In this document: positions 2,564 to 57,960 of the stretch, piece by piece
Layout of the letters: every line of letters starts with the position of its first letter
Numbering within the stretch: position 1 is the first letter of the stretch
DNA from: Escherichia phage LQ5
Direction: 5' to 3' (one strand)
Length of the DNA stretch: 64,000 bases
Sequence record: OR677401
Made by a program: the position numbers and the translations under genes
The notes under the pieces: model-generated
What the model saw: the letters and a program-made list of their open reading frames with translations, nothing else
Databases searched by the model: none
Told to the model about the DNA's origin: nothing

Positions 2564-3256
<693 letters not shown>

Positions 3257-3267
3257 TTTAAAAAGGT

Positions 3268-3307
3268 GTTTACAAGGTCTATAGGCATGATACTATAGAC
3301 CTATCAA
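3268..3307 (+). promoter_or_regulatory. early-type promoter cassette: GTTTACA (-35) + conserved TGATACTATAGACCTATCAA box, with inverted repeat GGTCTATAG/CTATAGACC
   Basis: Conserved sequence read directly; repeated at 3835, 12224 with near-identical flanks. Confidence 0.6.
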
Positions 3308-3333
3308 AACAAACTAACCGCACGGAAATCAAA

Positions 3334-3558
3334 ATGAAAACTTATCAAGAATTTATCACCGAAGCTAAAAGACATGAAGATGAACTGCCAATTGTTACAA
3401 AAACCTTTGATGGCACACTGGCTGATTTTAAAAAAGTCCCTAGTGATAAGCTTGCTAAATTGACTGGCTCTATCAATGAAAAAGGTGGCAAGGTCACGTT
3501 TTCTGCTGGCGGCATAGCCAATCTTAAAAAACTTTTGAAAGCCGCTGGCGCTGAATAA
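3334..3558 (+). CDS. internal protein (Ip) with capsid targeting sequence
   Basis: N-terminus MKTYQEFITEA is the conserved T4 internal-protein targeting signal cleaved by the prohead protease. Confidence 0.7.
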   Translation: MKTYQEFITEAKRHEDELPIVTKTFDGTLADFKKVPSDKLAKLTGSINEKGGKVTFSAGGIANLKKLLKAAGAE

Positions 3559-3559
3559 A

Positions 3560-3832
3560 ATGAAATCATACCAAGAATTTATCGCTGAATCTATTCTTAA
3601 TGAAGAAGTAAAAATTAACAAATCTGTTAAGACCATGATTGATAATATAAATCATCTCTATAACATCGATTTGACTAATCACGTAACTTTAGGCAATAAG
3701 CGAAACTTTTTTGTTTTTGATACTTCAGAACTCGACCAGAATCAAATTAACAATATTGAACGTTTTGCTAATGAAAAAGGGCTGCGCCACGAAACAGCTG
3801 GTTATAAAAAGTATGCAATTTATCTAAAATAA
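3560..3832 (+). CDS. internal protein (Ip) with capsid targeting sequence
   Basis: N-terminus MKSYQEFIAES; tandem to previous Ip gene. Confidence 0.65.
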   Translation: MKSYQEFIAESILNEEVKINKSVKTMIDNINHLYNIDLTNHVTLGNKRNFFVFDTSELDQNQINNIERFANEKGLRHETAGYKKYAIYLK

Positions 3833-3834
3833 TT

Positions 3835-3874
3835 GTTTACAAGGTCTATAGGTGTGATACTATAGACCTATCAA
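3835..3874 (+). promoter_or_regulatory. early-type promoter cassette (GTTTACA + TGATACTATAGACCTATCAA)
   Basis: Near-identical copy of cassette at 3268. Confidence 0.6.
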
Positions 3875-3899
3875 AACAAATGAGTGATTGGAGAATAAA

Positions 3900-4085
3900 A
3901 TGAAACGTTGTGAATTAATTAGAAATGTTACTGCACTGGTCGCCGTTACTGCTTTTGGCTTTAGTATGTTTGCAGGATTCATGCTCGATATGCTTTCAAC
4001 TTCCGAGAATATAATCTCTTTAGTAGTGACATTTTTAATTGGTTCAATCTCTTTTGTTATGGATAAAATCTCTAAAGGTGAATAA
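3900..4085 (+). CDS. small hydrophobic membrane protein
   Basis: ATG at 3900 preceded by GGAG; ORF-track start at 3888 is an alternative TTG; hydrophobic 62-aa product. Confidence 0.5.
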   Translation: MKRCELIRNVTALVAVTAFGFSMFAGFMLDMLSTSENIISLVVTFLIGSISFVMDKISKGE

Positions 4086-4486
4086 TGAACGTTGAATATT
4101 ATGTATATGCGGATTATGAAAATAATCCGTCTAAAGATGAAGATAACCGTTTAGGTATTGATGCTTTTGAATCCCCTGCTGCAGCTTGGCAATGGGTTGA
4201 AAGTACTGATATTCCTTACCGTTATATTGAAGTGGTAGACCATGCAGGAAACAAGTATCCTAAGGAAGCATATGTTCCTTCTGGAAAGGTAAATTTCCTT
4301 TTGTTCGCGGGTGATAACTACTATCCACGTGGTGGCTATACCGATTTAATCGCTAAAGCTGCCACTGAAGATGAACTACGTGAAATTGTTAAAGAAAACG
4401 AGAATAAGTTTCTTTACGGCTCCGATCGTTTTGACTGGTGGCAGATTGTTAATGCTAATACCCATACTATTGTAGACGAGGGTTAA
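4085..4486 (+). CDS. hypothetical protein
   Basis: 133-aa ORF, start overlaps upstream stop. Confidence 0.5.
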   Translation: MNVEYYVYADYENNPSKDEDNRLGIDAFESPAAAWQWVESTDIPYRYIEVVDHAGNKYPKEAYVPSGKVNFLLFAGDNYYPRGGYTDLIAKAATEDELREIVKENENKFLYGSDRFDWWQIVNANTHTIVDEG

Positions 4487-4771
4487 ATGCTATACGTTAA
4501 GGTTACTAATCCAGAGAATGGATATAATTCAGACCAGGTTGCAGCAGAGTTACTGATTCGCAACTTTGGCAAAGATGCCGTGCTTGATGTTCAACAGGTT
4601 AATATTGGCCGTAGTTCAAGCGACGTTAAACTCAAAGTTAACGGCCAACGTTATAATTCTGTTAACTTTACTTTTTATACCGCAACTGAAAACGGATTGG
4701 TCGAATACGACATCTTTAAAAATCCTTTGAAGATTGCTTCTATTAAACTTGATTACATTAATATGCTTTAA
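4487..4771 (+). CDS. hypothetical protein
   Basis: 94-aa ORF directly following previous stop. Confidence 0.5.
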   Translation: MLYVKVTNPENGYNSDQVAAELLIRNFGKDAVLDVQQVNIGRSSSDVKLKVNGQRYNSVNFTFYTATENGLVEYDIFKNPLKIASIKLDYINML

Positions 4772-4900
4772 GAATTATGTGATATTATTACTCTATCATT
4801 AATACCCTCTATTACCAAAGGTTCTTCCCTCAAAGAACCTTTCATAATAGACAAGGTCTATTAATTAAACTTACTTTACTTAATTTTATTTGAGGTGTTT

Positions 4901-5167
4901 ATGTTAGTATTAAAATTAGCTTTTTATGACCCTAAAACCAAGACAACAACTACCAAACGTTGTTCTATTTCATATGAATGTCAATTTGGCGAAGTTGAGA
5001 CTGATGGCGAGCCCTTTATGGCAATTGCCGATAGCACATTCGCTAAACCAAAAATAATTCCACTAGTTAACGCTGCGGCTTATCTGGTTGCTCCTGAAGA
5101 AATGACTTATCATACAATTCAGCACATGGCTAAAGATGATAATGCTCCTGCTGGATTTGTAGTTTGA
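4901..5167 (+). CDS. hypothetical protein
   Basis: ATG at 4901 with GAGG 8 nt upstream; ORF-track start 4895 is GTG. Confidence 0.45.
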   Translation: MLVLKLAFYDPKTKTTTTKRCSISYECQFGEVETDGEPFMAIADSTFAKPKIIPLVNAAAYLVAPEEMTYHTIQHMAKDDNAPAGFVV

Positions 5168-5172
5168 TTTAA

Positions 5173-5246
5173 GGCCCTGTAGCTCAATTGGTTAGAGCAT
5201 CCGGCTCATAACTGGCAGGTTTCCGGTTCAAGTCCGGATGGGGCCA
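5173..5246 (+). tRNA. tRNA with CAT anticodon (Met-type gene; probably the AUA-reading Ile tRNA as in T4); no encoded CCA
   Basis: Hand-folded cloverleaf: acceptor GGCCCTG/TGGGGCC, D stem GCTC/GAGC, anticodon loop CTCATAA, T arm TCCGG-TTCAAGT-CCGGA. Confidence 0.75.
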
Positions 5247-5287
5247 TATTTTGAGAACATAAATACTCTTAGAAATAGGAGATATTT

Positions 5288-5953
5288 ATGTTCCATTACA
5301 CTTATAAAATAACAAACAAAATTAATAATAAAATCTATATAGGTGCCCATTCAACCGAAAATTTGAATGATGCATATTTTGGTTCTGGTAAACTCTTAAA
5401 AAAGGCCCAAGCCAAATATGGTATAGAAAATTTCTCTAAAGAAATATTAGAGTTCTTTGACGATAAAACCTCTATGTTTGAGTCAGAAAAGAATATTGTG
5501 ACTGAAGAGTTTTTAAAGCGCCCTGATGTTTATAATTTGAAATTAGGTGGTGAAGGTGGTTGGGACCATTTAAACACTGAAGAATATTTGGATAAAAAGA
5601 AAGAAGCTTCCTTAAAAGGAGTTGCCGCTTTTAAAACCAGATTTGAGAACGACCCAGACCTTAAAGAAAAATATCGTAAAATGGGTTCAGAAAAGTTTAA
5701 ACAACTTTGGGATAATCCTAAGTATAGAGAGAAATTTTCAAATACTAAATCTTTCTTGGGTAAGACCCATTCAGATGAAACCATAAATAAAATGAAAGAA
5801 TCTCACGCCAGAAATAAACATCAACAAGGTGAAAATAATTCCGGATACGGAAAAATGTGGATTCATTCTTTAGAAGAAAAAGTTTCTAAACGTATTAACA
5901 AAACGGATATTATTCCTGAAGGTTGGAATAAAGGCCGTAAAATAAAATTTTGA
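5288..5953 (+). CDS. GIY-YIG homing endonuclease (SegB-like) within the tRNA cluster
   Basis: N-terminal YTYKITNKINNKIYIGAH motif; Lys-rich NUMOD-like C-terminus; lies between the two tRNA genes as T4 segB does. Confidence 0.75.
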   Translation: MFHYTYKITNKINNKIYIGAHSTENLNDAYFGSGKLLKKAQAKYGIENFSKEILEFFDDKTSMFESEKNIVTEEFLKRPDVYNLKLGGEGGWDHLNTEEYLDKKKEASLKGVAAFKTRFENDPDLKEKYRKMGSEKFKQLWDNPKYREKFSNTKSFLGKTHSDETINKMKESHARNKHQQGENNSGYGKMWIHSLEEKVSKRINKTDIIPEGWNKGRKIKF

Positions 5954-21712: not shown

Positions 21713-22006
21713 ATGGGTATTTTCCGTACAGCGGCTTGTATCCTTATGGCGGGATGTTTAAGCCCTACAGTTTCACTAGCAAATGGTGCCAATGATAAAT
21801 TGATGGATGCATTTGCTAGTAGTGCGATGCCTGTTTATGCGCAAATGAGTAGACCCAGCGTAAAGGCCTCCGAAGACTATTGGGCCTATGTTACGGCTTC
21901 CTGGAAGATTTCAAGTTGTCGGACTATAGAAGCGTGTTCAATTGAAGGTCGGGCCATCGGAGAGCGTTATGTAAAACTAATGAAGGTGGAAGATGAAGTT
22001 CAATGA
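21713..22006 (+). CDS. rI: rI-like lysis-inhibition regulator (periplasmic antiholin)
   Basis: 97 aa as T4 RI; signal-like N-terminus; position after tk. Confidence 0.6.
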   Translation: MGIFRTAACILMAGCLSPTVSLANGANDKLMDAFASSAMPVYAQMSRPSVKASEDYWAYVTASWKISSCRTIEACSIEGRAIGERYVKLMKVEDEVQ

Positions 22007-25565: not shown

Positions 25566-26546
25566 ATGTTAACTATCAAAATCAACAAAGGTATCTATCG
25601 CGGTAATGTAATCTCTGGTACGTTCATGAGTTCAGGTAAAACCTGGTTCCCTAATAAAATTCATGAATCCGAAGCTCACCTCGGTGATGGCAAGGTATTC
25701 GTACAGATTGATGGTGTTGAACGTGGTGTATGGGTATTCAAATGTGATATCGAAACCGAAGGCGCACCAGCTCCTGCAATGGTTACTGAATCCGCTGAAG
25801 AAATGAAACACCGTATCAACAAACGTTTTAAAGTAATGAACATGATGACTAACGGAATCATCGATGGTAAAATTCGTTCCCTTATAATCTCTGGTGCCGC
25901 AGGTATTGGTAAAACATATTCTTTGGATAAAGCATTACAGAATGCCCACGAAAATGAAACTATCGAATATAAATCAATCAACGGAAAGATTAGTGGAATC
26001 GGTCTTTACGAGCAGCTTTGGAATAACCGCGGCCCTAATAGTGTTCTTCTTATTGATGATGTTGATGTATTCTCTGATATGGATATCCTGAACCTGTTAA
26101 AAGCAGCATTGGATACTGGTGAAAAACGTAAGGTGTGCTGGAGCACTTCAAGTTCTTATCTTGATGATAAAAATATCGATAAAGAATTTGAGTATGAAGG
26201 CACCATCGTGTTCATCACCAACGTTGATATTGACCGTGAATTAGAGCGTGGAACTAAACTTGCTCCACACCTCCAGGCTTTAGTATCGCGTTCAGTTTAC
26301 TTAGACCTCGGAGTTCACTCGAACGAAGAGATTATGGTTCGTGTTGAAGACGTTATCCTGTCCACTGATATGATGCAAAACCGTGGTCTGACTGATGCCG
26401 AGACTTACCAAGCTTTAGCATGGATGAAGGCTAATGTATCTCGTCTTCGTAACGTATCATTACGTACAGCTCTTTATCTGGCGGACTTCATTGCCACCGA
26501 TAAAAATGACTGGAGCGAAATCGCTGAAGTTACACTTCTGAAATAA
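25566..26546 (+). CDS. AAA/P-loop ATPase with ~130-aa N-terminal domain
   Basis: Walker A ISGAAGIGKT, Walker B VLLIDDVD; ATG 25566 after GGAGAATATA. Confidence 0.6.
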   Translation: MLTIKINKGIYRGNVISGTFMSSGKTWFPNKIHESEAHLGDGKVFVQIDGVERGVWVFKCDIETEGAPAPAMVTESAEEMKHRINKRFKVMNMMTNGIIDGKIRSLIISGAAGIGKTYSLDKALQNAHENETIEYKSINGKISGIGLYEQLWNNRGPNSVLLIDDVDVFSDMDILNLLKAALDTGEKRKVCWSTSSSYLDDKNIDKEFEYEGTIVFITNVDIDRELERGTKLAPHLQALVSRSVYLDLGVHSNEEIMVRVEDVILSTDMMQNRGLTDAETYQALAWMKANVSRLRNVSLRTALYLADFIATDKNDWSEIAEVTLLK

Positions 26547-45770: not shown

Positions 45771-48482
45771 ATGCAAGAATTCTATTTGACAGTCGAACAA
45801 ATCGGTGATAATATTCTCGAACGTTACATCGATAAAAATGGTAACGAACGTAGTCGTGAAGTTCCATACAAGCCTACAATGTTTATGCATGCTAATCCAG
45901 AGCAAGCCGTAAAATACATTGATATCTATGGTAAGGGTTGTGTTAAGAAAGAATTCGACTCTATGCGTGATGCATCCCAATGGATGAAACGTATGGATGA
46001 TATGGGCCTCGAAGCCCTGGGTATGGACGACTATAAATTAGCCTATTTGTCTGATACCTATCGTAAAGAAATCAAATATGATTCTTCTAAGATTCGTATT
46101 GCTAACTTCGACATCGAGGTAACATCTCCTGATGGATTCCCTGAACCAGCTCAGGCTAAACATCCTATCGATGCCATTACCCACTACGACTCGATTGACG
46201 ATAAATTCTATGTATTCGACCTTTTAGTTTCGCCTTATGGTACTGTTGAAGAGTGGTCGATTAAAATCGCTGAGAAACTCCAAGACGAAGGTGGTGACGA
46301 AGTTCCACAGGAAATCATTGACAAAATCGTTTATCTTCCGTTTAATTCTGAAGAAGAAATGATGCTTGAGTACTTGAATTTCTGGCAACAGAAAACTCCT
46401 GTGATTTTGACTGGATGGAACGTTGAGTCGTTTGACGTACCGTACGTTTATAACCGTCTGAAAAATCTGTTCGGTGAGAACACTGCTAAGCGATTAAGCC
46501 CACATCGTAAAACTCGTGTTAAAGTTATTGAGAACATGTACGGTGCTCGTGAAATCATTACATTGTTCGGTATCTCTGTTCTGGATTATATCGACCTCTA
46601 TAAAAAATTCAGCTTCACCAACCAGCCTTCTTATTCTCTGGATTATGTTTCTGAATATGAATTGAAAGTGGGTAAGTTGAAATATGATGGTCCAATCTCT
46701 AAGTTACGTGAGACGAACCACCAACGATATATTTCCTATAACATTATCGACGTATATCGTGTAGTGCAGATTGATATGAAGCGTCAGTTCATTCTTCTGA
46801 GTTTGGACATGGGTTATTATGCCAAGATGCAGATTCAGTCGGTGTTCAGTCCAATTAAGACTTGGGACGCTATTATCTTTAATAGCCTTAAAGAGCAAGG
46901 CAAGGTAATTCCACAAGCTCGTTCACACGTGGTTCAACCTTATCCCGGTGCTTTCGTTAAGGAACCTATTCCTAACGCTTACAAATATGTAATGAGTTTC
47001 GACCTTACATCTCTGTACCCGAGTATCATTCGACAAGTGAATATAAGCCCAGAGACCATCGCAGGGACATTCGCTAACGCACCGATACATGAATATATTG
47101 CCGGAACAGCTCCGCGTCCTAGCGACGTCTACAGTTGCTCTCCTAACGGCATGATGTACTATAAAGACCGCGATGGTGTGATTCCTACAGAAATCACCAA
47201 GGTGTTCTTACAACGTAAAGAACATAAAGGTTATATGCTTGCAGCTCAACGTAATGGTGAGTTAATTAAAGAAGCATTAGAAAATCCTAATCTCTCGGTT
47301 GATAGTCCACTGGATATCGATTATCGTTTTGACTTCTCTGACGAAATCAAAGCCAAGATTAAAACGCTGTCAGCACCTTCTTTAAGAGAAATGTTGTTCA
47401 GAGCTGAACGTACCGAAGTTGCAGGTATGACTGCTCAGATTAACCGTAAGTTGCTTATCAACTCCCTTTATGGTGCACTTGGTAACGTATGGTTCCGTTA
47501 TTACGACCTCAGGAACGCAACTGCAATCACATTGTTTGGTCAAATGGCCCTCCAATGGATTGAACGTAAGGTTAACGAATATCTGAATAGCGTGTGTAAG
47601 ACTGAAAACCAGAAGTTCGTGCTCTATGGTGATACTGACTCCATTTATGTTAAGGCGGATGCAATCATCAATAAAGTAGGCGAAGACAAATTCCGTGATA
47701 CTAACCACTGGGTTGACTTCTTAGATAAATTTGCACGTGAACGTATGGAACCGGCTATTGATGCAGGCTTCCGTGAGATGTGCGAGTACATGAACAACAA
47801 ACAGCACTTGATGTTCATGGACCGAGAAGCTATCGCAGGTCCTCCACTTGGTTCTAAAGGTCTTGGTGGATTCTGGACAGGTAAGAAACGTTATGCACTG
47901 AACGTTTGGGACATGGAAGGTACTCGTTATGCCGAACCGCACTTGAAAATCATGGGTCTCGAAACCCAGAAATCAAGTACACCTAAAGCAGTTCAGAAAG
48001 CTCTGAAAGAATGTATCCGTCGTATGCTTCAGGAAGGCGAGGCCTCTTTGCAAGAATATTTCAAACAGTTTAATAAGGAATTTAACGAACTAAACTATGT
48101 AAGCATTGCAGCAGTATCCAGTGCTAACAACATCGAGAAATATAATGAAGGTGGATTCCCGGGTTCTAAATGTCCATACCACATCAAAGGTTGCTTAGCT
48201 TACATGCGTGCTTCTGCAGGTGATTTGACTATGCCTCGTATCGTTGATGGTGAAAAGGTATATGTACTGCCACTTAAAGAAGGCAACCCGTTTGGTGAAG
48301 CTTGTATGGCATGGCCGTCAGGTATTGAACTTCCGGTTCAGATTCGTGACCAAGTCCTCCGTTGGATGGACTACAACGTACTGTTCCAAAAGACCTTTAT
48401 CAAACCTCTGACCGGTTTTACTGAGTCTGCTAAAATCGACTACGAGAAAAAAGCAACATTATTTGATATGTTCGACTTTTAA
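45771..48482 (+). CDS. 43: DNA polymerase gp43 (family B)
   Basis: 903 aa, collinear with recalled T4/RB69 gp43 incl. exonuclease FDIEVT and polymerase YGDTDS motifs; uninterrupted. Confidence 0.97.
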   Translation: MQEFYLTVEQIGDNILERYIDKNGNERSREVPYKPTMFMHANPEQAVKYIDIYGKGCVKKEFDSMRDASQWMKRMDDMGLEALGMDDYKLAYLSDTYRKEIKYDSSKIRIANFDIEVTSPDGFPEPAQAKHPIDAITHYDSIDDKFYVFDLLVSPYGTVEEWSIKIAEKLQDEGGDEVPQEIIDKIVYLPFNSEEEMMLEYLNFWQQKTPVILTGWNVESFDVPYVYNRLKNLFGENTAKRLSPHRKTRVKVIENMYGAREIITLFGISVLDYIDLYKKFSFTNQPSYSLDYVSEYELKVGKLKYDGPISKLRETNHQRYISYNIIDVYRVVQIDMKRQFILLSLDMGYYAKMQIQSVFSPIKTWDAIIFNSLKEQGKVIPQARSHVVQPYPGAFVKEPIPNAYKYVMSFDLTSLYPSIIRQVNISPETIAGTFANAPIHEYIAGTAPRPSDVYSCSPNGMMYYKDRDGVIPTEITKVFLQRKEHKGYMLAAQRNGELIKEALENPNLSVDSPLDIDYRFDFSDEIKAKIKTLSAPSLREMLFRAERTEVAGMTAQINRKLLINSLYGALGNVWFRYYDLRNATAITLFGQMALQWIERKVNEYLNSVCKTENQKFVLYGDTDSIYVKADAIINKVGEDKFRDTNHWVDFLDKFARERMEPAIDAGFREMCEYMNNKQHLMFMDREAIAGPPLGSKGLGGFWTGKKRYALNVWDMEGTRYAEPHLKIMGLETQKSSTPKAVQKALKECIRRMLQEGEASLQEYFKQFNKEFNELNYVSIAAVSSANNIEKYNEGGFPGSKCPYHIKGCLAYMRASAGDLTMPRIVDGEKVYVLPLKEGNPFGEACMAWPSGIELPVQIRDQVLRWMDYNVLFQKTFIKPLTGFTESAKIDYEKKATLFDMFDF

Positions 48483-48484
48483 GT

Positions 48485-48526
48485 GTTTACATACCACAAG
48501 GAACGTGGTAGTATCCTTCCTATCAA
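48485..48526 (+). promoter_or_regulatory. early-type promoter cassette variant
   Basis: GTTTACA + TGGTAGTATCCTTCCTATCAA. Confidence 0.5.
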
Positions 48527-48544
48527 CTACATGAGGAAATTACA

Positions 48545-48781
48545 ATGGAAGCTTTAATCGTTAGTGCTGGTGTTTTAGGATTCGGTTCTCTGGTTATTAT
48601 GTTCATCGGTTACTTTTTACCATGGATTCTGGCTCTTCTGCGAGGCACTCGTAGTAATGTCGGAATTTTCTTCCTTAATCTCCTGTTAGGCTGGACGATG
48701 ATTGGTTGGGTAGTGGCTTTAATCTGGGCTATCGTCGCTGAACGTAAATCAAACGCACAAATCATTATTGTTAAGCAATGA
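48545..48781 (+). CDS. imm: superinfection immunity protein Imm-like
   Basis: 78-aa two-TM protein with LLGWTMIGWVVALIWA motif; position after gene 43. Confidence 0.7.
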   Translation: MEALIVSAGVLGFGSLVIMFIGYFLPWILALLRGTRSNVGIFFLNLLLGWTMIGWVVALIWAIVAERKSNAQIIIVKQ

Positions 48782-48915
48782 AAATAATTATTTTATTTCT
48801 TATAATGACTGCCTTTACCATTTATTGGGCAGTGGCAATTCCGCCAATGATTCCGACACTAATCATCGGATGGATTATTCTTATAGCACAAATTAAGTAT
48901 AACTGTTTTAATTGA
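48778..48915 (+). CDS. small hydrophobic peptide (45 aa)
   Basis: ATG overlaps imm stop; below ORF-track cutoff. Confidence 0.45.
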   Translation: MKIIILFLIMTAFTIYWAVAIPPMIPTLIIGWIILIAQIKYNCFN

Positions 48916-48922
48916 GGATATT

Positions 48923-49423
48923 ATGAAAAAGTTAATTATCGCAATGAGTATGCTCCTATCAGGTTGTGCGGTCCAATATGGTGATGCAGTTTCGGCTGAT
49001 GAAGTTGGTAAAGCTCGTATCGCAGCTGAACAGAAACAATTCGATGGCGAAATGAAATTCCGTGCAGGTTCTGGACTTGTGTACACCCGAGCCAATAATC
49101 AATGTGGTAATAACTGTGCAAAATATGCTCAAAGGGAAATCGAATTCCAACGTGAACAAGAGTCTAAGCGTGAAGCGGTACTAGCCAAACACCAGGCAGA
49201 AATGAAGCGTCAAGATGATTTGTACAAAAAGCAGAAACTGTATGCGATGTGCGTAAACCATATCAATCTACAGATTTCCATCCACGAGGCTCGTTATTAC
49301 GAAATGCTCGAAACCGAGAGCTTCGGTAAAGCTCGTGATTATAAGAAACAAATCGATAAGCTCAAGACCAAAGCACCGGCGGCAATAAAACAGTGTATTG
49401 AAATCGGTAAAGATAAGATTTAA
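48923..49423 (+). CDS. lipoprotein
   Basis: Signal peptide with lipobox LLSGC; 166 aa. Confidence 0.6.
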   Translation: MKKLIIAMSMLLSGCAVQYGDAVSADEVGKARIAAEQKQFDGEMKFRAGSGLVYTRANNQCGNNCAKYAQREIEFQREQESKREAVLAKHQAEMKRQDDLYKKQKLYAMCVNHINLQISIHEARYYEMLETESFGKARDYKKQIDKLKTKAPAAIKQCIEIGKDKI

Positions 49424-49439
49424 GCAATACCAATTTATT

Positions 49440-49470
49440 AAAAATAGTGTATAATGTACCTACATTCACT
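49440..49470 (+). promoter_or_regulatory. promoter (TGTATAAT) overlapping palindrome AATGTA-cc-TACATT
   Basis: Read directly upstream of the sugar-activation operon. Confidence 0.45.
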
Positions 49471-49483
49471 TGAGGAACAGATA

Positions 49484-51157
49484 ATGAAAAAGGTTGTTAT
49501 TTTAGGCGCGGGTCTTGGCTCACGGTTGTATCCAATTACCAACGAAATCCCGAAGGTACTGGTTAACTACAAACAACATACTGTATTAAAACATTTGTAT
49601 GATTTGTATAGTAATCAATCAGATGAAATTATTCTGGTTATTCACAGCAAATTTAACGACCTCGTTAAAGGCTATATTAAATCCATTAACATGATTAATA
49701 GTGATAAGCCCAAATTCACTATTCGTAACGTTGATGTTGCCAATGGTTCGGCTCATGCTATCGATTGCATTGCCGAAGATATCATTGGGCACAATGTCTT
49801 GTTTAACTGGTGTGATATTATTCCTGAAGGTCATAAAGTTGAGTGGGATAACGACTACTGTTATACCTATGGGACTGACTGTCGTTTTACATTTGAAGAA
49901 CCGTACTTGCGTGAAATTGGTACCGGTGGTGGTGTGGTTGGTTTGTATCAGGTTGCTAATTGGACAGGCTTCAACCGTTCTAATTATGGCGAAGACCTTG
50001 CTGATAACCTGGATTCGATGGTCCATTTGACCGAACGTAAGCTGGACTTTGTAGTTGATGTCGGTGACAAATTGAAACTGGCTAAGGCCCATGAAGATTC
50101 TGAAATTAACCGTGAATTTAATAAATTAGAGTTCACTGAGAATCTAGCTATTAAAGTACCTACAAACGAATTAGGTAAAGAAATCCAATCTAAAGAAATC
50201 AATTGGTACAATTCTATTGATTCTGAATTCGTTCCTAGCATTGTAGACTTTGCTCCAGGTGAATTCATTAAAATGGAACGTATCTTTGGTCGAACCATGG
50301 CAGATGCCTACCGGTTTATGTCTAAAGAAACTAAAGTCCTAATGGTTTATAAGGTTATTAGTGCATTACGTTCGTTCGGTGGAACTATCGATAATCCGTC
50401 CGATGAGCAATGGTATTCTGATGTTAAGAAAGAAGTATTGGACAAGGTCCTTATTCGTAATGCTTCTATTGCCGGATTGATTGAAGGCTTTGCTCCACAG
50501 GGTATTACCCATGTTAACGACTTCAAGGTAGGCGACCCAGAAAAACTTCTTCGTCACGCCTTAGAAATTCTGTCTGAACATAAAGAACCGTACCAACTTA
50601 TTCATGGCGACCCGCACTACAGTAATATTATGTTGTCGGACGAAGGTAATATTAAAATCATCGACCCACGTGGTTATTTTGGTAATAGTTCTAAAGGCCC
50701 TGCGATTTATGATGAAGCTAAGGTGCTTTATTCTATCGATGGTTATGACAAATTTAACTCTGACCCTCTATGGGGCGGATTAACTCGTAACGGAACTCGT
50801 GTATTCGTTGATATTGAAAAGGTTATGCCTTTAGATGATATTCCGATGTGTACATTTAAGCACAAGCTCTGGATTGCCGTTATTTGGATGGCATTGGCAG
50901 GTTACTTTAAAAATAACCCTCTGAAAGCTCTGGGCGCTTATTACAATGGGCTATATCAACTGAGTGTGCTGCTGAAGCGGCATCCTCGTAAGCGTAAGCT
51001 TATCACAGGTGAATTCGTTGATGAAGTTCGCGACCCTATCACGGCTCAAATTATCACTCGTTGTCCTGATAAGTGGGTTTTGCTTGACCAAGAAACTGGT
51101 GTAAAATATAAACCTACAGGTTCTACCGAACTCCACAAACAATGGAAGAAAATTTAA
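49484..51157 (+). CDS. bifunctional sugar-1-phosphate nucleotidyltransferase / APH-fold sugar kinase
   Basis: N-terminal ILGAGLGSRLYPIT..PKVLV; C-terminal HGDPHYSNIM ... IIDPRG kinase catalytic loop; ATG 49484. Confidence 0.7.
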   Translation: MKKVVILGAGLGSRLYPITNEIPKVLVNYKQHTVLKHLYDLYSNQSDEIILVIHSKFNDLVKGYIKSINMINSDKPKFTIRNVDVANGSAHAIDCIAEDIIGHNVLFNWCDIIPEGHKVEWDNDYCYTYGTDCRFTFEEPYLREIGTGGGVVGLYQVANWTGFNRSNYGEDLADNLDSMVHLTERKLDFVVDVGDKLKLAKAHEDSEINREFNKLEFTENLAIKVPTNELGKEIQSKEINWYNSIDSEFVPSIVDFAPGEFIKMERIFGRTMADAYRFMSKETKVLMVYKVISALRSFGGTIDNPSDEQWYSDVKKEVLDKVLIRNASIAGLIEGFAPQGITHVNDFKVGDPEKLLRHALEILSEHKEPYQLIHGDPHYSNIMLSDEGNIKIIDPRGYFGNSSKGPAIYDEAKVLYSIDGYDKFNSDPLWGGLTRNGTRVFVDIEKVMPLDDIPMCTFKHKLWIAVIWMALAGYFKNNPLKALGAYYNGLYQLSVLLKRHPRKRKLITGEFVDEVRDPITAQIITRCPDKWVLLDQETGVKYKPTGSTELHKQWKKI

Positions 51158-51516
51158 TGCATCTGTGTTTTGATATCGATAATACCATTACTCACTGGCA
51201 AGATGACCGTGATTACGAAAACTTTAAACCGGACACCGAAATGGTGTCCATGATTAATAAGCTTTATGATGAAGGGTACGAGATTACCTTGTTCACTGCC
51301 CGTGGTATGACTTCATGCGGCCCGGGTCGAATCTTGGTTGAAGTAGTTCCTGCATTAGTTAAGAACCTTGAAAAGATTGGATTGAAATATCACAATCTGC
51401 TTACACATAAGCCGAGTTATACTTTTATCATCGATGACCGAGCAATCCGTCCTGACCACTTTAAAGAAATGGTTCGTGAAGGAACTCTTGAAACCTATAA
51501 GGCATATCATCCGTGA
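51157..51516 (+). CDS. HAD-superfamily phosphatase
   Basis: DxDxT motif FDIDNTIT near N-terminus; ATG 51157 overlaps upstream TAA. Confidence 0.65.
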   Translation: MHLCFDIDNTITHWQDDRDYENFKPDTEMVSMINKLYDEGYEITLFTARGMTSCGPGRILVEVVPALVKNLEKIGLKYHNLLTHKPSYTFIIDDRAIRPDHFKEMVREGTLETYKAYHP

Positions 51517-52049
51517 AACCAAAAATCATTGTTATCGACGGCCCGGATAATTCCGGGAAGTCTACTTTAATTGAATCACTTTTATCTGATAAGAAATATC
51601 GTCTTATCGATTTCCCTAAAAAGATTAACGGCAAATGCATTTCATTAGGGACTGATAATGACAAGGCTTTAGTCGAGACGTTGTATAAGTTTTTAGACCC
51701 TAATTTTGTCTACATCTTAGACCGTGGGTATCCTAGTAATATTGTTTACTCTGGATTCCTTCGTGGTGAAATGGACCCTTATGTAGAATTAGCAGATTGG
51801 ATTGATTTCAAAAAAGAATTCAATATCATTGAGATTATTTTAACCCGTAATCCATTAGATGAAGACTTTGAAGATGACCTTATTAAATTAACCAAAGATG
51901 AGTTCAACCTAACTATCCAGCAATATGAAACATGTTTTGAAAACGTGTTTAAAATCTTAAATCACGACGGCCATAATAACTTGCTTAACGTCGATATGGT
52001 AGAATTAAAACGTCTGAATGAATATATTGAAAATAAGGTGAATAAATGA
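51513..52049 (+). CDS. P-loop nucleotide/nucleoside kinase-like protein
   Basis: Walker A IVIDGPDNSGKST; probable GTG start overlapping upstream stop. Confidence 0.55.
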   Translation: MKPKIIVIDGPDNSGKSTLIESLLSDKKYRLIDFPKKINGKCISLGTDNDKALVETLYKFLDPNFVYILDRGYPSNIVYSGFLRGEMDPYVELADWIDFKKEFNIIEIILTRNPLDEDFEDDLIKLTKDEFNLTIQQYETCFENVFKILNHDGHNNLLNVDMVELKRLNEYIENKVNK

Positions 52050-52744
52050 AACACATTACCGCTGTTAGTTTTGAAAACGCGTTTAAGCAAATGAACGAAG
52101 AAATCCTGGAAGCTCCACAGTTTGCAGTTGATTCTCGTATCGGCCGTTGTTATGAAATTGGTTCTGCTTCGGTAGAAGTACTGGATGCAAGCACCTATAA
52201 ATTCACCGACCCTCGTATTAATCGTATCAACTATGATTATGCCGAATCCTTTTGGAAGTTTATGATTTCTGGTGGTACTGACGCTGCTGAAGCATTTAAG
52301 GAATATCCTAATGTTGCTAAGTTCATTGATAAGCCGAAAAGTGACGTATTGCCTGCAAACTTCAACACTTTCTATGGACCTCGAATTGTGGCCCAACTCC
52401 CGGCCCTACTTAAAGAGCTTAAAGAGAAGCCTAACTCAAGACGAGTTGTGTTCCAAATTCTCCAAGAACAAGACCAGGCCCTCCTTGATTCTGACGAATC
52501 CTTAGAATACCCATGTACCGATTCGGTGACATATTATATTCGTGATGGACGTCTGTATGCACATACTCATATGCGTTCACAGAACTGTGCTATCGTTATG
52601 CAGCTGGATTTCTATCTGCAGGGTAAACTGATGGCCTTTATTGCTGAACAGTGTGGTGTTGGTCTGGGTACGTATTCCCATACTATGGTTAGTGCACACG
52701 TATTTGAACGTGATTTTGACTACGTTCGAGGATTCCTGAAATGA
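52046..52744 (+). CDS. 42: thymidylate-synthase-family pyrimidine hydroxymethylase (gene 42 position; divergent)
   Basis: Core PCTDSVTYYIRDGRLYAHTHMRSQN parallels recalled T4 gp42 FMCTNTVQYLIRD...NMRSND. Confidence 0.6.
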   Translation: MKHITAVSFENAFKQMNEEILEAPQFAVDSRIGRCYEIGSASVEVLDASTYKFTDPRINRINYDYAESFWKFMISGGTDAAEAFKEYPNVAKFIDKPKSDVLPANFNTFYGPRIVAQLPALLKELKEKPNSRRVVFQILQEQDQALLDSDESLEYPCTDSVTYYIRDGRLYAHTHMRSQNCAIVMQLDFYLQGKLMAFIAEQCGVGLGTYSHTMVSAHVFERDFDYVRGFLK

Positions 52745-53634
52745 GTTTGTTTATCGTTCCTATTTTCAGTATGCGTAGTTACGAAACAGGTGAATATGCC
52801 GTCCTTAAGGACGGTAATTTTCAACTCCATTTAAACCGTGCTTGCCCAGGTGATTATCTGGCTTATCCTAGAAATTCGAGCGATATCAAAGAATGCATTG
52901 AATTATTTCCTGAACTGAATTTTGTACCGCTTTGGTATAAAGAAAATGCTTATGAAACTCGTAAACATTTTTGGTCTGAAAACGAGTTCGTTGTTGATTC
53001 GTTAATCGAATACTATGACTGCTCAGGATTGGTAACCGATATCACAGGTTATGATGGCACTCAGACTGTACAATTCAACTTTAACATTACAATGGACCCT
53101 GAAGTTCCTCGTTATTATATCGACGAGTTTATTGATACCGACGTGTCCTCAGTTGAACGTTCGATTTATACCACAGTCCTGAATCAATGTCAGAAAGACG
53201 TCCTGGTGTCACGAGGTGCGTCCTCTGATAAGATTTTTGTAGACCAAAAGGTAATTAATCCGGCAGTAATTGAGCGTTACTCTGAAGGCCTAGCGCCTAT
53301 TAAAATTGATGGTATTTTCCACCCATTCCGTATTTCGGATAAGTGTTATCAATTCGAAAGAGTTGTAGACCAAGCTGCGGCTGAAGGTGCTCGTCTTTAT
53401 ATCACCGACCCGAATGATTCATTTAAGCGTGAAGACTATCGTCCTGATGTAGAGATTATTAAATTCAAACCGAGTAAGGTTGAATATTATCAGATTCTGA
53501 AATCAAGACCTCATATCATTTATCATGAGAATCCCGGTTTAGTATTCCATCCTGGTCTGGCTGAATTCATTTATTTCGGTGCCCATATCCATTCTGAGCA
53601 CGAAATGCCAAGTTATGAGGACGTGGTCCTTTAA
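52741..53634 (+). CDS. uncharacterised protein in the beta-glucosyltransferase position; putative DNA sugar transferase
   Basis: 297 aa, coupled to hydroxymethylase; no similarity to recalled T4 beta-gt. Confidence 0.5.
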   Translation: MSLFIVPIFSMRSYETGEYAVLKDGNFQLHLNRACPGDYLAYPRNSSDIKECIELFPELNFVPLWYKENAYETRKHFWSENEFVVDSLIEYYDCSGLVTDITGYDGTQTVQFNFNITMDPEVPRYYIDEFIDTDVSSVERSIYTTVLNQCQKDVLVSRGASSDKIFVDQKVINPAVIERYSEGLAPIKIDGIFHPFRISDKCYQFERVVDQAAAEGARLYITDPNDSFKREDYRPDVEIIKFKPSKVEYYQILKSRPHIIYHENPGLVFHPGLAEFIYFGAHIHSEHEMPSYEDVVL

Positions 53635-57666: not shown

Positions 57667-57960
57667 ATGAAAAAGTTATTAATCGCAGCAATCCTTACAG
57701 TAGCGTCATGTGGCACGGCTCCAGTTACGGCTGGATTGGATAAAGACCTTTGTGAATGGTCTATGACTGCAGACCAAGAATCGGTTGAACATCAGATTTA
57801 TGCTGATATCATGAACATCACTAAACGCGACCGCCCTGATATGGTTAAAGAAGTGTCAGACCAATTGGCTTCAAGCGGTGTTATGCAATATAACTATGTT
57901 TTGTATTGCGATGCCAATTTCGATAACAAAAATATCGTTAAAGAGGTGACAGGTGAATAA
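57667..57960 (+). CDS. sp: Spackle (Sp) periplasmic superinfection-exclusion protein
   Basis: Signal/lipobox MKKLLIAAILTVASC then GLDKDLCEWSMTADQ ... GVMQYNYVLYCD matching recalled T4 Sp; ATG 57667. Confidence 0.7.
   Translation: MKKLLIAAILTVASCGTAPVTAGLDKDLCEWSMTADQESVEHQIYADIMNITKRDRPDMVKEVSDQLASSGVMQYNYVLYCDANFDNKNIVKEVTGE

Follow-up and report, generated by a model that had tools for sequence, protein, structure and literature searches.

The imm, 42.1 and lipoprotein genes of Escherichia phage LQ5 as a Dhakavirus counterpart of the T4 imm.1-imm-42.1 cassette

We analyzed a stretch of 64,000 nucleotides from Escherichia phage LQ5 (sequence record OR677401), called the window below, and investigated a block of three genes at positions 48545-49423. 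These genes encode the superinfection immunity protein Imm, a hydrophobic micro-protein of 45 amino acids and a lipoprotein of 166 amino acids. It is well supported that the block corresponds, in Dhakavirus, to the early envelope cassette imm.1-imm-42.1 of T4, placed between the DNA polymerase gene and the cytosine-modification genes. A preliminary description of the same DNA had missed this correspondence, and had also missed that the genes do not form an obligate unit. GenBank already contains the sequences, for the most part as 'hypothetical protein'; Imm belongs to a known family and the other two products to existing uncharacterised families. New here are the equivalence with the T4 genes, the family-wide anatomy of the lipoprotein and the synteny evidence for and against its link to imm. 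At present we regard the block as an ordinary accessory cassette whose sequence was already available, and the role of lipoproteins of the T4 Imm.1 type is a question of modest scope that can easily be tested. An uncharacterised early outer-membrane lipoprotein of this kind is encoded beside imm in most T-even phages of enterobacteria.

Layout of the block and its relation to T4

We compared positions 48400-49600 with other phage genomes. The identity of this stretch to Escherichia phage QL01 was 99.8%, and that to approximately 40 further Dhakavirus genomes (Straboviridae, Tevenvirinae) was 95-99%. By its sequence the source of the window is a Dhakavirus, a T4-like coliphage. All three open reading frames (ORFs) lie next to each other on the + strand downstream of gene 43, just where they had been placed before. 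The local gene order in QL01 and Bp7 is 45, 44, 62, regA, 43, imm, the micro-ORF, the gene of a hypothetical 166-amino-acid protein and that of a 567-amino-acid protein. Beyond the 567-amino-acid gene follow genes for a haloacid dehalogenase (HAD)-like protein, a deoxynucleoside monophosphate (dNMP) kinase-like protein, a gene 42 homolog and a 297-amino-acid protein, and then uvsX, 40 and 41. In the window, the ORF upstream of imm is gene 43, with its true start at approximately 45771 and a product of 903 amino acids, as in the QL01 annotation.

A consensus scan, together with reading of the sequence, detected a candidate early-type sigma-70 promoter at 48486-48514 (+ strand), 4 nucleotides past the stop codon of gene 43. 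It consists of (G)TTTACA, 17 nucleotides and TAGTAT with TG upstream, and it fits the T4 early promoter pattern in a consensus match only. T4 has a counterpart site, TTTACA-17-TACTAT, upstream of imm.1. We saw no terminator-like site between imm, the micro-ORF and the lipoprotein gene. The three genes are probably transcribed early as one unit from the promoter candidate past gene 43. The earlier proposal that all three products go to the cell envelope is well supported by the analysis given below.

The first gene, imm (48545-48781, + strand), encodes a 78-amino-acid inner-membrane superinfection immunity protein. The product matched the Pfam family Imm_superinfect (PF14373) with 65.1 bits (cut-off 27.9, E = 5e-18), phrog_1039, 'immunity to superinfection' (E = 3e-32), and T4 Imm (E = 2e-22). 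It was already noticed from the sequence that an Imm-like protein follows gene 43, and these matches bear this out. The window Imm has two hydrophobic stretches, at residues 2-33 and 39-67. Residues R33 and W50, which are required for the activity of T4 Imm (preprint 10.64898/2026.03.06.709160), are conserved and aligned without gaps. It is a clear member of the PF14373 family, and it resembles T4 Imm in the family profile match and in these two residues, while the identity of the two proteins is only 43%. The mechanism of Imm appeared only in 2026: T4 Imm binds the tape measure protein gp29 of the superinfecting phage and stops DNA entry, and plasmid-expressed Imm by itself excludes T4 (preprint 10.64898/2026.03.06.709160). 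According to the annotation of the T4 record, the action of Imm leaves secondary DNA outside the cytoplasm.

The second gene (48778-48915, + strand) had been described as an overlapping hydrophobic micro-ORF of 45 amino acids, and we observed the same. Its ATG overlaps the TGA of imm as ATGA, and its product is very hydrophobic (grand average of hydropathicity, GRAVY, 1.59; residues 1-41 hydrophobic) and matched phrog_3610 (E = 1.4e-21). The Pfam family PF26865 is precomputed on homologs of this product that are 96% and 78% identical to it. In T4 there is an ORF of 49 amino acids between imm and gene 42 (NC_000866.4, 26227-26376, minus strand; 4228-4377 of the T4 locus that we read). This ORF also overlaps the imm stop codon by ATGA, and it has no feature in RefSeq NC_000866. 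The window micro-ORF matched it in tblastn with E of approximately 1e-12, and the pattern common to the two is IY[WY]..[VI].P.M[IV]PT[LI]..[GA]W....Q.[KR][YF].C[FI]N (in short, the conserved motif IYW..PxMIPTL..W..Q.KY.CFN). The T4 ORF matches 765 phage records; it is named '42.1' in T4T and VR7 and is unannotated in many. Homologs of the micro-ORF were found in 45-765 phage records. The records of QL01, VR5 and IME281 also omit the micro-ORF. The identification of the micro-ORF as a homolog of T4 gene 42.1 is well supported, and we use this name below.

The order in T4 is gene 43, imm.1 (a lipoprotein with a LAGC lipobox), imm, the 49-amino-acid 42.1 ORF and gene 42. Both phages have a lipoprotein, Imm and a micro-protein of approximately 45-49 amino acids that overlaps the imm stop codon. 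They also share the slot after gene 43 and the position of the early-type promoter, and the two lipoproteins belong to one PHROG. The difference is in the order of the genes, which is lipoprotein-imm-42.1 in T4 and imm-42.1-lipoprotein in the window.

Further, we compared the two lipoproteins. T4 Imm.1 has 126 amino acids and scored 239 bits against the Pfam profile DUF5481 (PF17578), while the window lipoprotein had no match to that profile even at E ≤ 1. BLASTP of the window protein against T4 Imm.1 gave E = 7.4. Both proteins matched phrog_1754 (window lipoprotein E = 1e-51, T4 Imm.1 E = 6e-43); this is a family assignment by the PHROG authors and not an independent proof of homology. In hhalign, Imm.1 and the lipoprotein with its signal peptide aligned with a probability of 96% over 31 columns. 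With the mature parts, a 13-column motif gave E = 0.004 and a probability of 8%, and the remainder was below 1%. BLASTP of T4 Imm.1 against the CIP9 homolog found 15 of 31 residues identical (E = 3e-7). The mature domains of the Tequatrovirus and Mosigvirus lineages on the one side and of the remaining genera on the other have diverged so far that they cannot be aligned.

Imm.1 and the window lipoprotein are alike in the outer-membrane type of lipobox, the N-terminal motif G-x-V-V-x-x-x-[DE]-V-G-K and the position beside imm. The mature T4 protein also has four Cys, the last of them in an N-x-C-[VIM] context near the C-terminus. They differ in that the window protein is 40 residues longer and has a G-S/T-G-L-x-Y...QCGNNC core that Imm.1 lacks. 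By these comparisons the window lipoprotein is a positional counterpart and PHROG co-member of Imm.1. As it gives no match to the Pfam profile, we do not assign it to DUF5481.

We assessed selection on the three genes by the ratio of nonsynonymous to synonymous substitution rates (dN/dS). Against other Dhakaviruses imm had values of 0-0.07, the micro-ORF 0.08-0.30 and the lipoprotein 0.05-0.12. In the comparison with one Gaprivervirus and five other Dhakaviruses the values were 0-0.14, 0.08-0.30 and 0.05-0.23, respectively. Since these values are low, all three are kept as coding genes under purifying selection. The lipoprotein evolves several-fold faster than the flanking enzymes (flank dN/dS 0.01-0.07). 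In VR5 the block of imm, 42.1 and lipoprotein (818-1701 of the VR5 locus read) had dS of 0.8-1.2 against the window, and its 42.1 was only 59% identical. The VR5 flanks, i.e. gene 43 and the 567-amino-acid gene, had dS of 0.3-0.46. As the dS of the block is far above that of the flanks, the divergence of VR5 suggests that the block was replaced by recombination and that the three genes can be exchanged together.

The lipoprotein family and its predicted anatomy

The third gene (48923-49423, + strand) encodes the predicted outer-membrane lipoprotein and has a GAGGA Shine-Dalgarno sequence 4 nucleotides upstream. The N-terminus of its product, MKKLIIAMSMLLSGC, contains a signal peptide (residues 1-14) and a predicted lipid-modified Cys15 (48923-48967, + strand), with the lipobox L-S-G-C and Ala at +2. 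The only hydrophobic stretch of the protein comprises residues 3-18. The match to phrog_1754 was end-to-end, with residues 1-163 on profile positions 2-147 of 148, and no Pfam family was matched. The preliminary description was thus right to call the 166-amino-acid protein a lipoprotein, as confirmed by its lipobox, the residue at +2 and the profile. By the '+2 rule', the residue after the lipidated Cys governs Lol sorting to the outer membrane. Since this residue is Ala, the protein would be sorted there; its lipid anchor most likely sits in the inner leaflet of that membrane, with the protein facing the periplasm.

Among 1.84 billion representative proteins, we detected no more than 18 clusters of this family by a profile search. 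With tblastn we obtained 127 phage records, all of them T4-like Tevenvirinae of Enterobacterales. The lipobox was present in 22 of 24 aligned members, and none of the 24 had Asp at +2. The members from P0023 and MHG19 have an ordinary signal peptide in place of the lipobox. Judged from the alignment, lipid anchoring is usual across the family, and it is not universal. The mature proteins are mostly basic (pI approximately 9), with a net charge of +4 to +7 in most members; this charge is not conserved, and several members are at net 0. In the literature on imm.1, DUF5481 and T-even lipoproteins we found no experiment on any phrog_1754 or DUF5481 member.

We modelled the lipoprotein with AlphaFold2 from an alignment of 26 sequences (mean predicted local distance difference test, pLDDT, 80). 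In the predicted layout, a flexible tether after Cys15 is followed by a short helix (residues 27-39), a beta-hairpin (42-56), a loop (60-65), a helix (62-131) and a return helix (134-162). Alignment revealed a motif near the N-terminus of the mature lipoprotein, G-[DEP]-x-V-x-x-x-[DE]-[VI]-G-[KQ] (48980-49015, + strand). This motif also occurs in T4 and Mosigvirus Imm.1 and is missing from short family members. The most conserved part, by alignment and model, comprises the beta-hairpin, with model strands at 42-47 and 51-56, and the Q-C-G-N-N-C loop (49046-49117, + strand). Residues G49, G51, Y54, C110 and C158 are invariant in the family, and Q60, C61, G62, N64, C65 and A69 are nearly so. The long helical hairpin formed by helix 62-131 and the return helix (49106-49408, + strand) has a variable sequence apart from C110 and C158; its first helix has approximately 70 residues and measures approximately 10 nm. 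We infer two disulfides, C61-C65 closing the loop and C110-C158 stapling the helices, because four conserved Cys occur in a periplasmic protein. The prediction gives good support to a conserved knob at the end close to the outer membrane, with the variable helical hairpin pointing to the cell wall.

A fold comparison found no solved or predicted structure of known function that resembles the model. A match to a LysM-kinase over the knob region (E = 0.34) was non-significant and topologically different, and it was dropped. We also scanned the long helix for heptads and saw no clear coiled-coil register. The possibility that the protein mimics Lpp and is cross-linked via a C-terminal Lys was dropped too, as the C-termini are not conserved.

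An outer-membrane lipoprotein with a long helical periplasmic part, encoded after a small membrane-protein gene, also recalls a spanin, either as the outer-membrane subunit or as a unimolecular spanin. The protein has no C-terminal membrane anchor, 42.1 is without a periplasmic domain, and the promoter and the gene neighbourhood are of the early type. Further, Serratia phage CHI14, which has a member of this family, separately encodes Rz-like spanins in its pseT region. We rejected the spanin assignment, the probability of which we consider negligible.

Synteny of the three genes across genera

We investigated the position of the lipoprotein gene in other T4-like phages. In Dhaka-, Gapriver-, Gelderland-, Moon-, Jiaoda-, Kanagawa- and Winklervirus, members of the family immediately follow gene 43, and they adjoin imm in five of these seven genera. 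In Gelderlandvirus, Moonvirus and Jiaodavirus we observed the T4 order, i.e. 43, lipoprotein, imm and 42. In at least eight Tevenvirinae genera the lipoprotein occupies the position that corresponds to Imm.1, and an outer-membrane lipoprotein of phrog_1754 stands beside imm in T4 and at least five other genera.

The slot after gene 43 looks different in Mosigvirus. There it holds only the isomerase gene, 42.1 and sugar genes, and neither imm.1 nor imm. In the Mosigviruses mogra (3495-4530 of the locus read) and mobillu, imm.1 and imm are found between dmd and sp, directly upstream of sp. The Mosigvirus lipoprotein moved together with imm to a position beside the exclusion gene sp.

In the complete genome of Serratia phage CHI14 we located the lipoprotein gene, 42.1, sp, rI and rIII. 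We detected no Imm homolog in it: the T-even Imm profile run over all six-frame ORFs gave E = 0.16 as its best hmmsearch value, and tblastn gave none. In CHI14 the lipoprotein gene overlaps the start of an arabinose-5-phosphate isomerase gene. Taken together, Mosigvirus and CHI14 give mixed evidence on the link between the lipoprotein and imm. Because CHI14 is without Imm, and because Imm alone excludes T4, the lipoprotein is not a required partner of Imm. We also considered that the N-terminal motif might track the presence of imm, and rejected this, as Melville has imm beside a lipoprotein without the motif.

Gene 42.1 has a pattern of its own. Its ATG overlaps the upstream stop codon as ATGA in the window and in all 10 other genomes read. 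The upstream gene is imm in T4, Dhakavirus and Gaprivervirus, and the arabinose-5-phosphate isomerase gene in CHI14, PEi20, CIP9 and Mosigvirus. 42.1 was absent from the loci read for Melville, KM16, KP1 and MHG19. As 42.1 is coupled to imm or to the isomerase gene depending on the genome, and is missing from some imm loci, it is not tied to Imm. The gene arrangements give good support to the view that 42.1 is a conserved membrane micro-protein, translationally coupled to whichever gene precedes it. The candidate role of 42.1 as an Imm partner is weakened, since it is coupled to the isomerase gene instead in four genera.

These arrangements bear on the possibility that the lipoprotein in the outer membrane, together with Imm and 42.1 in the inner membrane, forms one interdependent exclusion complex across the envelope. 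The adjacent genes, their shared probable promoter, the ATGA overlap of imm and 42.1 and the occurrence of the same trio in T4 agree with such a complex. However, the lipoprotein and 42.1 occur without Imm in CHI14, and the lipoprotein and Imm occur without 42.1 in the loci of Melville, KM16 and KP1. In Mosigvirus 42.1 stays with the sugar genes while the lipoprotein and imm move, and in CHI14, PEi20, CIP9 and Mosigvirus its coupling is to the isomerase gene and not to imm. Plasmid-borne Imm, moreover, excludes T4 by itself. We consider an obligate three-part machine very improbable.

Possible functions of the lipoprotein

We tentatively favour the reading that the lipoprotein is an Imm-independent early factor, anchored in the outer membrane and located in the periplasm, that takes part in exclusion or envelope protection; we regard this as possible rather than probable. 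The lipoprotein would work independently of Imm and be one more early factor of the envelope, placed on the inner side of the outer membrane. Its invariant knob would bind a conserved periplasmic target, which may be a part of the incoming T-even tail or a conserved component of the host envelope. The result would be less damage or entry by secondary phages, i.e. genetic exclusion or resistance to lysis from without. Masking of a specific receptor would not be part of this mechanism. A lipobox without Asp at +2, four conserved Cys and the mature pI of approximately 9 are in line with periplasmic life. The clustering of imm.1, imm and sp in Mosigvirus and the conserved knob on a variable stalk also point to the favoured reading. 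The preliminary description had proposed the lipoprotein as a superinfection-exclusion or receptor-masking factor, and the first half of this proposal is reasonable, given the adjacency to imm and the joint move in Mosigvirus.

T4 superinfection exclusion has so far been explained by two proteins, Imm and Spackle. It is conceivable, and in our opinion rather unlikely, that the phrog_1754 lipoproteins, T4 Imm.1 included, represent a third layer of T-even exclusion or of resistance to lysis from without. In that case the knob would intercept, immediately beneath the outer membrane, the tail tip, the tail tube, or the ejected hub and tape measure proteins of a secondary phage. This step would precede those of Spackle at the cell wall and of Imm at the inner membrane, and would depend on neither of them. 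An action on secondary phages would make the lipoprotein an additional layer of a textbook system, with relevance to how phage cocktails are designed. An action on the host envelope would make it a new tool for studying the biology of the outer membrane or the cell wall.

Several points weigh against the favoured reading. What leads to the functional step is location, timing and synteny and nothing else, as no homolog or structural analog of known function was found. The literature search brought no experiment on a phrog_1754 or DUF5481 member, and the promoter is only a consensus match. Homology of the mature domains of Imm.1 and the window lipoprotein could not be demonstrated by BLASTP or by hhalign with full, trimmed or sub-family alignments. 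In the model, pLDDT is 90-97 at residues 90-160, while the N-terminal third has low to moderate confidence. Finally, CHI14 keeps the lipoprotein without imm and couples it to a metabolic gene, which fits a non-exclusion role equally well.

The last point leads to a role directed at the host. The lipoprotein may bind a conserved periplasmic or outer-membrane component of the host and thereby keep the infected cell intact or unresponsive in the latent period. Conceivable targets are, for example, the link to the cell wall, a lytic enzyme, a sensor of envelope stress or a defence located in the envelope. Retention without imm in CHI14, with translational coupling to the isomerase gene, agrees with this takeover of the envelope, and so do the restriction of the family to phages of Enterobacterales, the basic mature protein and the invariant knob, which suggests a conserved target. 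On the other hand, the lipoprotein has no similarity to known inhibitors of envelope enzymes, and the relocation of the Imm.1 lipoprotein together with imm beside sp in Mosigvirus points to exclusion. A host-directed envelope role is almost as likely as an exclusion role; taken by itself, envelope takeover is an explanation that we hold to be somewhat doubtful.

The second half of the earlier proposal was receptor masking, in analogy to Llp of T5. In this case the lipoprotein would bind the periplasmic face of an outer-membrane receptor, as Llp or Cor does, and would block further adsorption or the loss of progeny on debris. The window lipoprotein, T5 Llp and the lambdoid and T1 Cor proteins are all phage-encoded outer-membrane lipoproteins, and Llp is made shortly after infection, as the window lipoprotein would be. 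The modelled knob is also close to the inner face of the outer membrane, where Llp acts, so that contact with an outer-membrane protein is geometrically possible. Unlike Llp and Cor, the window protein has a much larger helical architecture, and it has no sequence or fold similarity to them or to any solved protein. The Cor PHROG (phrog_1119) matched only residues 1-18, i.e. the signal peptide (E = 0.014).

The llp gene of T5 and the cor genes lie beside the receptor-binding genes and change with them. In QL01, however, the lipoprotein gene (25969-26469) and gp37/gp38 (157315-161467) are approximately 130 kilobases (kb) apart. The N-domain of QL01 gp38 (only the first 176 residues aligned) shared 96.6% identity with its counterpart in Gapriverviruses, and the lipoproteins of these phages are just 48% identical to that of the window. 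With other Dhakaviruses, the lipoproteins of which reach 97-98% identity, the N-domain shared no more than 82-85%. Phages WG01 and QL01 differ in their receptor-binding host-range determinants (review PMC13517834), and yet their lipoproteins are both 99.4% identical to that of the window. Further, the knob does not vary among phages of E. coli, Salmonella, Klebsiella, Serratia, Edwardsiella and Enterobacter. Lysis inhibition requires that secondary phages go on adsorbing, and the presence of an rI gene therefore argues against a block of adsorption. With no similarity to Llp or Cor, no linkage to receptor genes, gp38 mosaicism uncoupled from the lipoprotein and rI present, the analogy to T5 Llp was not supported, and we assign receptor masking a low probability.

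The rI gene just mentioned encodes a lysis-inhibition homolog of 97 amino acids (21713-22006, + strand; phrog_1246, E = 1.5e-29). Its presence in the window raises the possibility that the lipoprotein is an accessory of lysis inhibition, i.e. that this basic protein captures or stabilises a periplasmic signal of excluded phages and so prolongs the latent period. The lipoprotein gene adjoins imm, and the annotated action of Imm, with secondary DNA left outside the cytoplasm, would fit, as would the positive charge of most mature members. Against this, the members without net charge break the pattern, the protein has no DNA-binding or RI/T-like domain, and its gene is unlinked to rI, rIII or t in any genome read. 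We consider such a function improbable. The rI homolog (MGIFRTAACILMAGC...) was also picked up in the lipobox scan, with a lipobox-like string in its N-terminal hydrophobic region.

The separate Sp homolog that had been reported at 57667 is present as well. This Spackle (sp) gene lies at 57667-57960 (+ strand), outside the block, and its product matched PF25676 (T4_Spackle) with 144.5 bits (cut-off 27, E = 1.6e-42) and was 74% identical to Mosigvirus Sp. Spackle is a periplasmic inhibitor of the gp5 tail lysozyme. T4 Spackle is a small early periplasmic protein with disulfides that acts against secondary phages, as the lipoprotein may be, and in Mosigvirus its gene neighbours those of the Imm.1 lipoprotein and imm. 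It differs in being soluble and unrelated in sequence, and in the window it is encoded 8 kb away. The window Sp homolog has a lipobox-like V-A-S-C in its signal peptide, where T4 Sp has L-A-S-C.

Directly downstream of the lipoprotein gene, at 49454-53634, the window contains an RB69-type cytosine hypermodification cluster. Its 567-amino-acid protein is a nucleotidyltransferase/kinase fusion (PF00483 and PF01636) and is called 'RB69 orf052c-like' in the JS98 record. The rest of the cluster encodes a HAD-like protein of 124 amino acids, a dNMP-kinase-like protein, a thymidylate-synthase-like gene 42 homolog and the 297-amino-acid protein, which belongs to phrog_3891. Enzymes of the RB69 type make 5-hydroxy-deoxycytidine monophosphate (5-hydroxy-dCMP), and the pathway is conserved in Dhakaviruses (2026 Nucleic Acids Research paper, PMC13326640). 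In Gaprivervirus VR7 (3110-5424 of the locus read), uvsX comes immediately after imm, 42.1 and the lipoprotein gene, and neither gene 42 nor sugar genes intervene. This layout agrees with the report that Gapriverviruses are without known base-modification enzymes (PMC8056088).

Between the lipoprotein stop codon and the 567-amino-acid gene we observed an extended -10-like element, TGTATAAT, at 49424-49453 of the window. In the promoter scan this element did not rank as a full promoter; it could be the start of a separate transcript for the modification genes.

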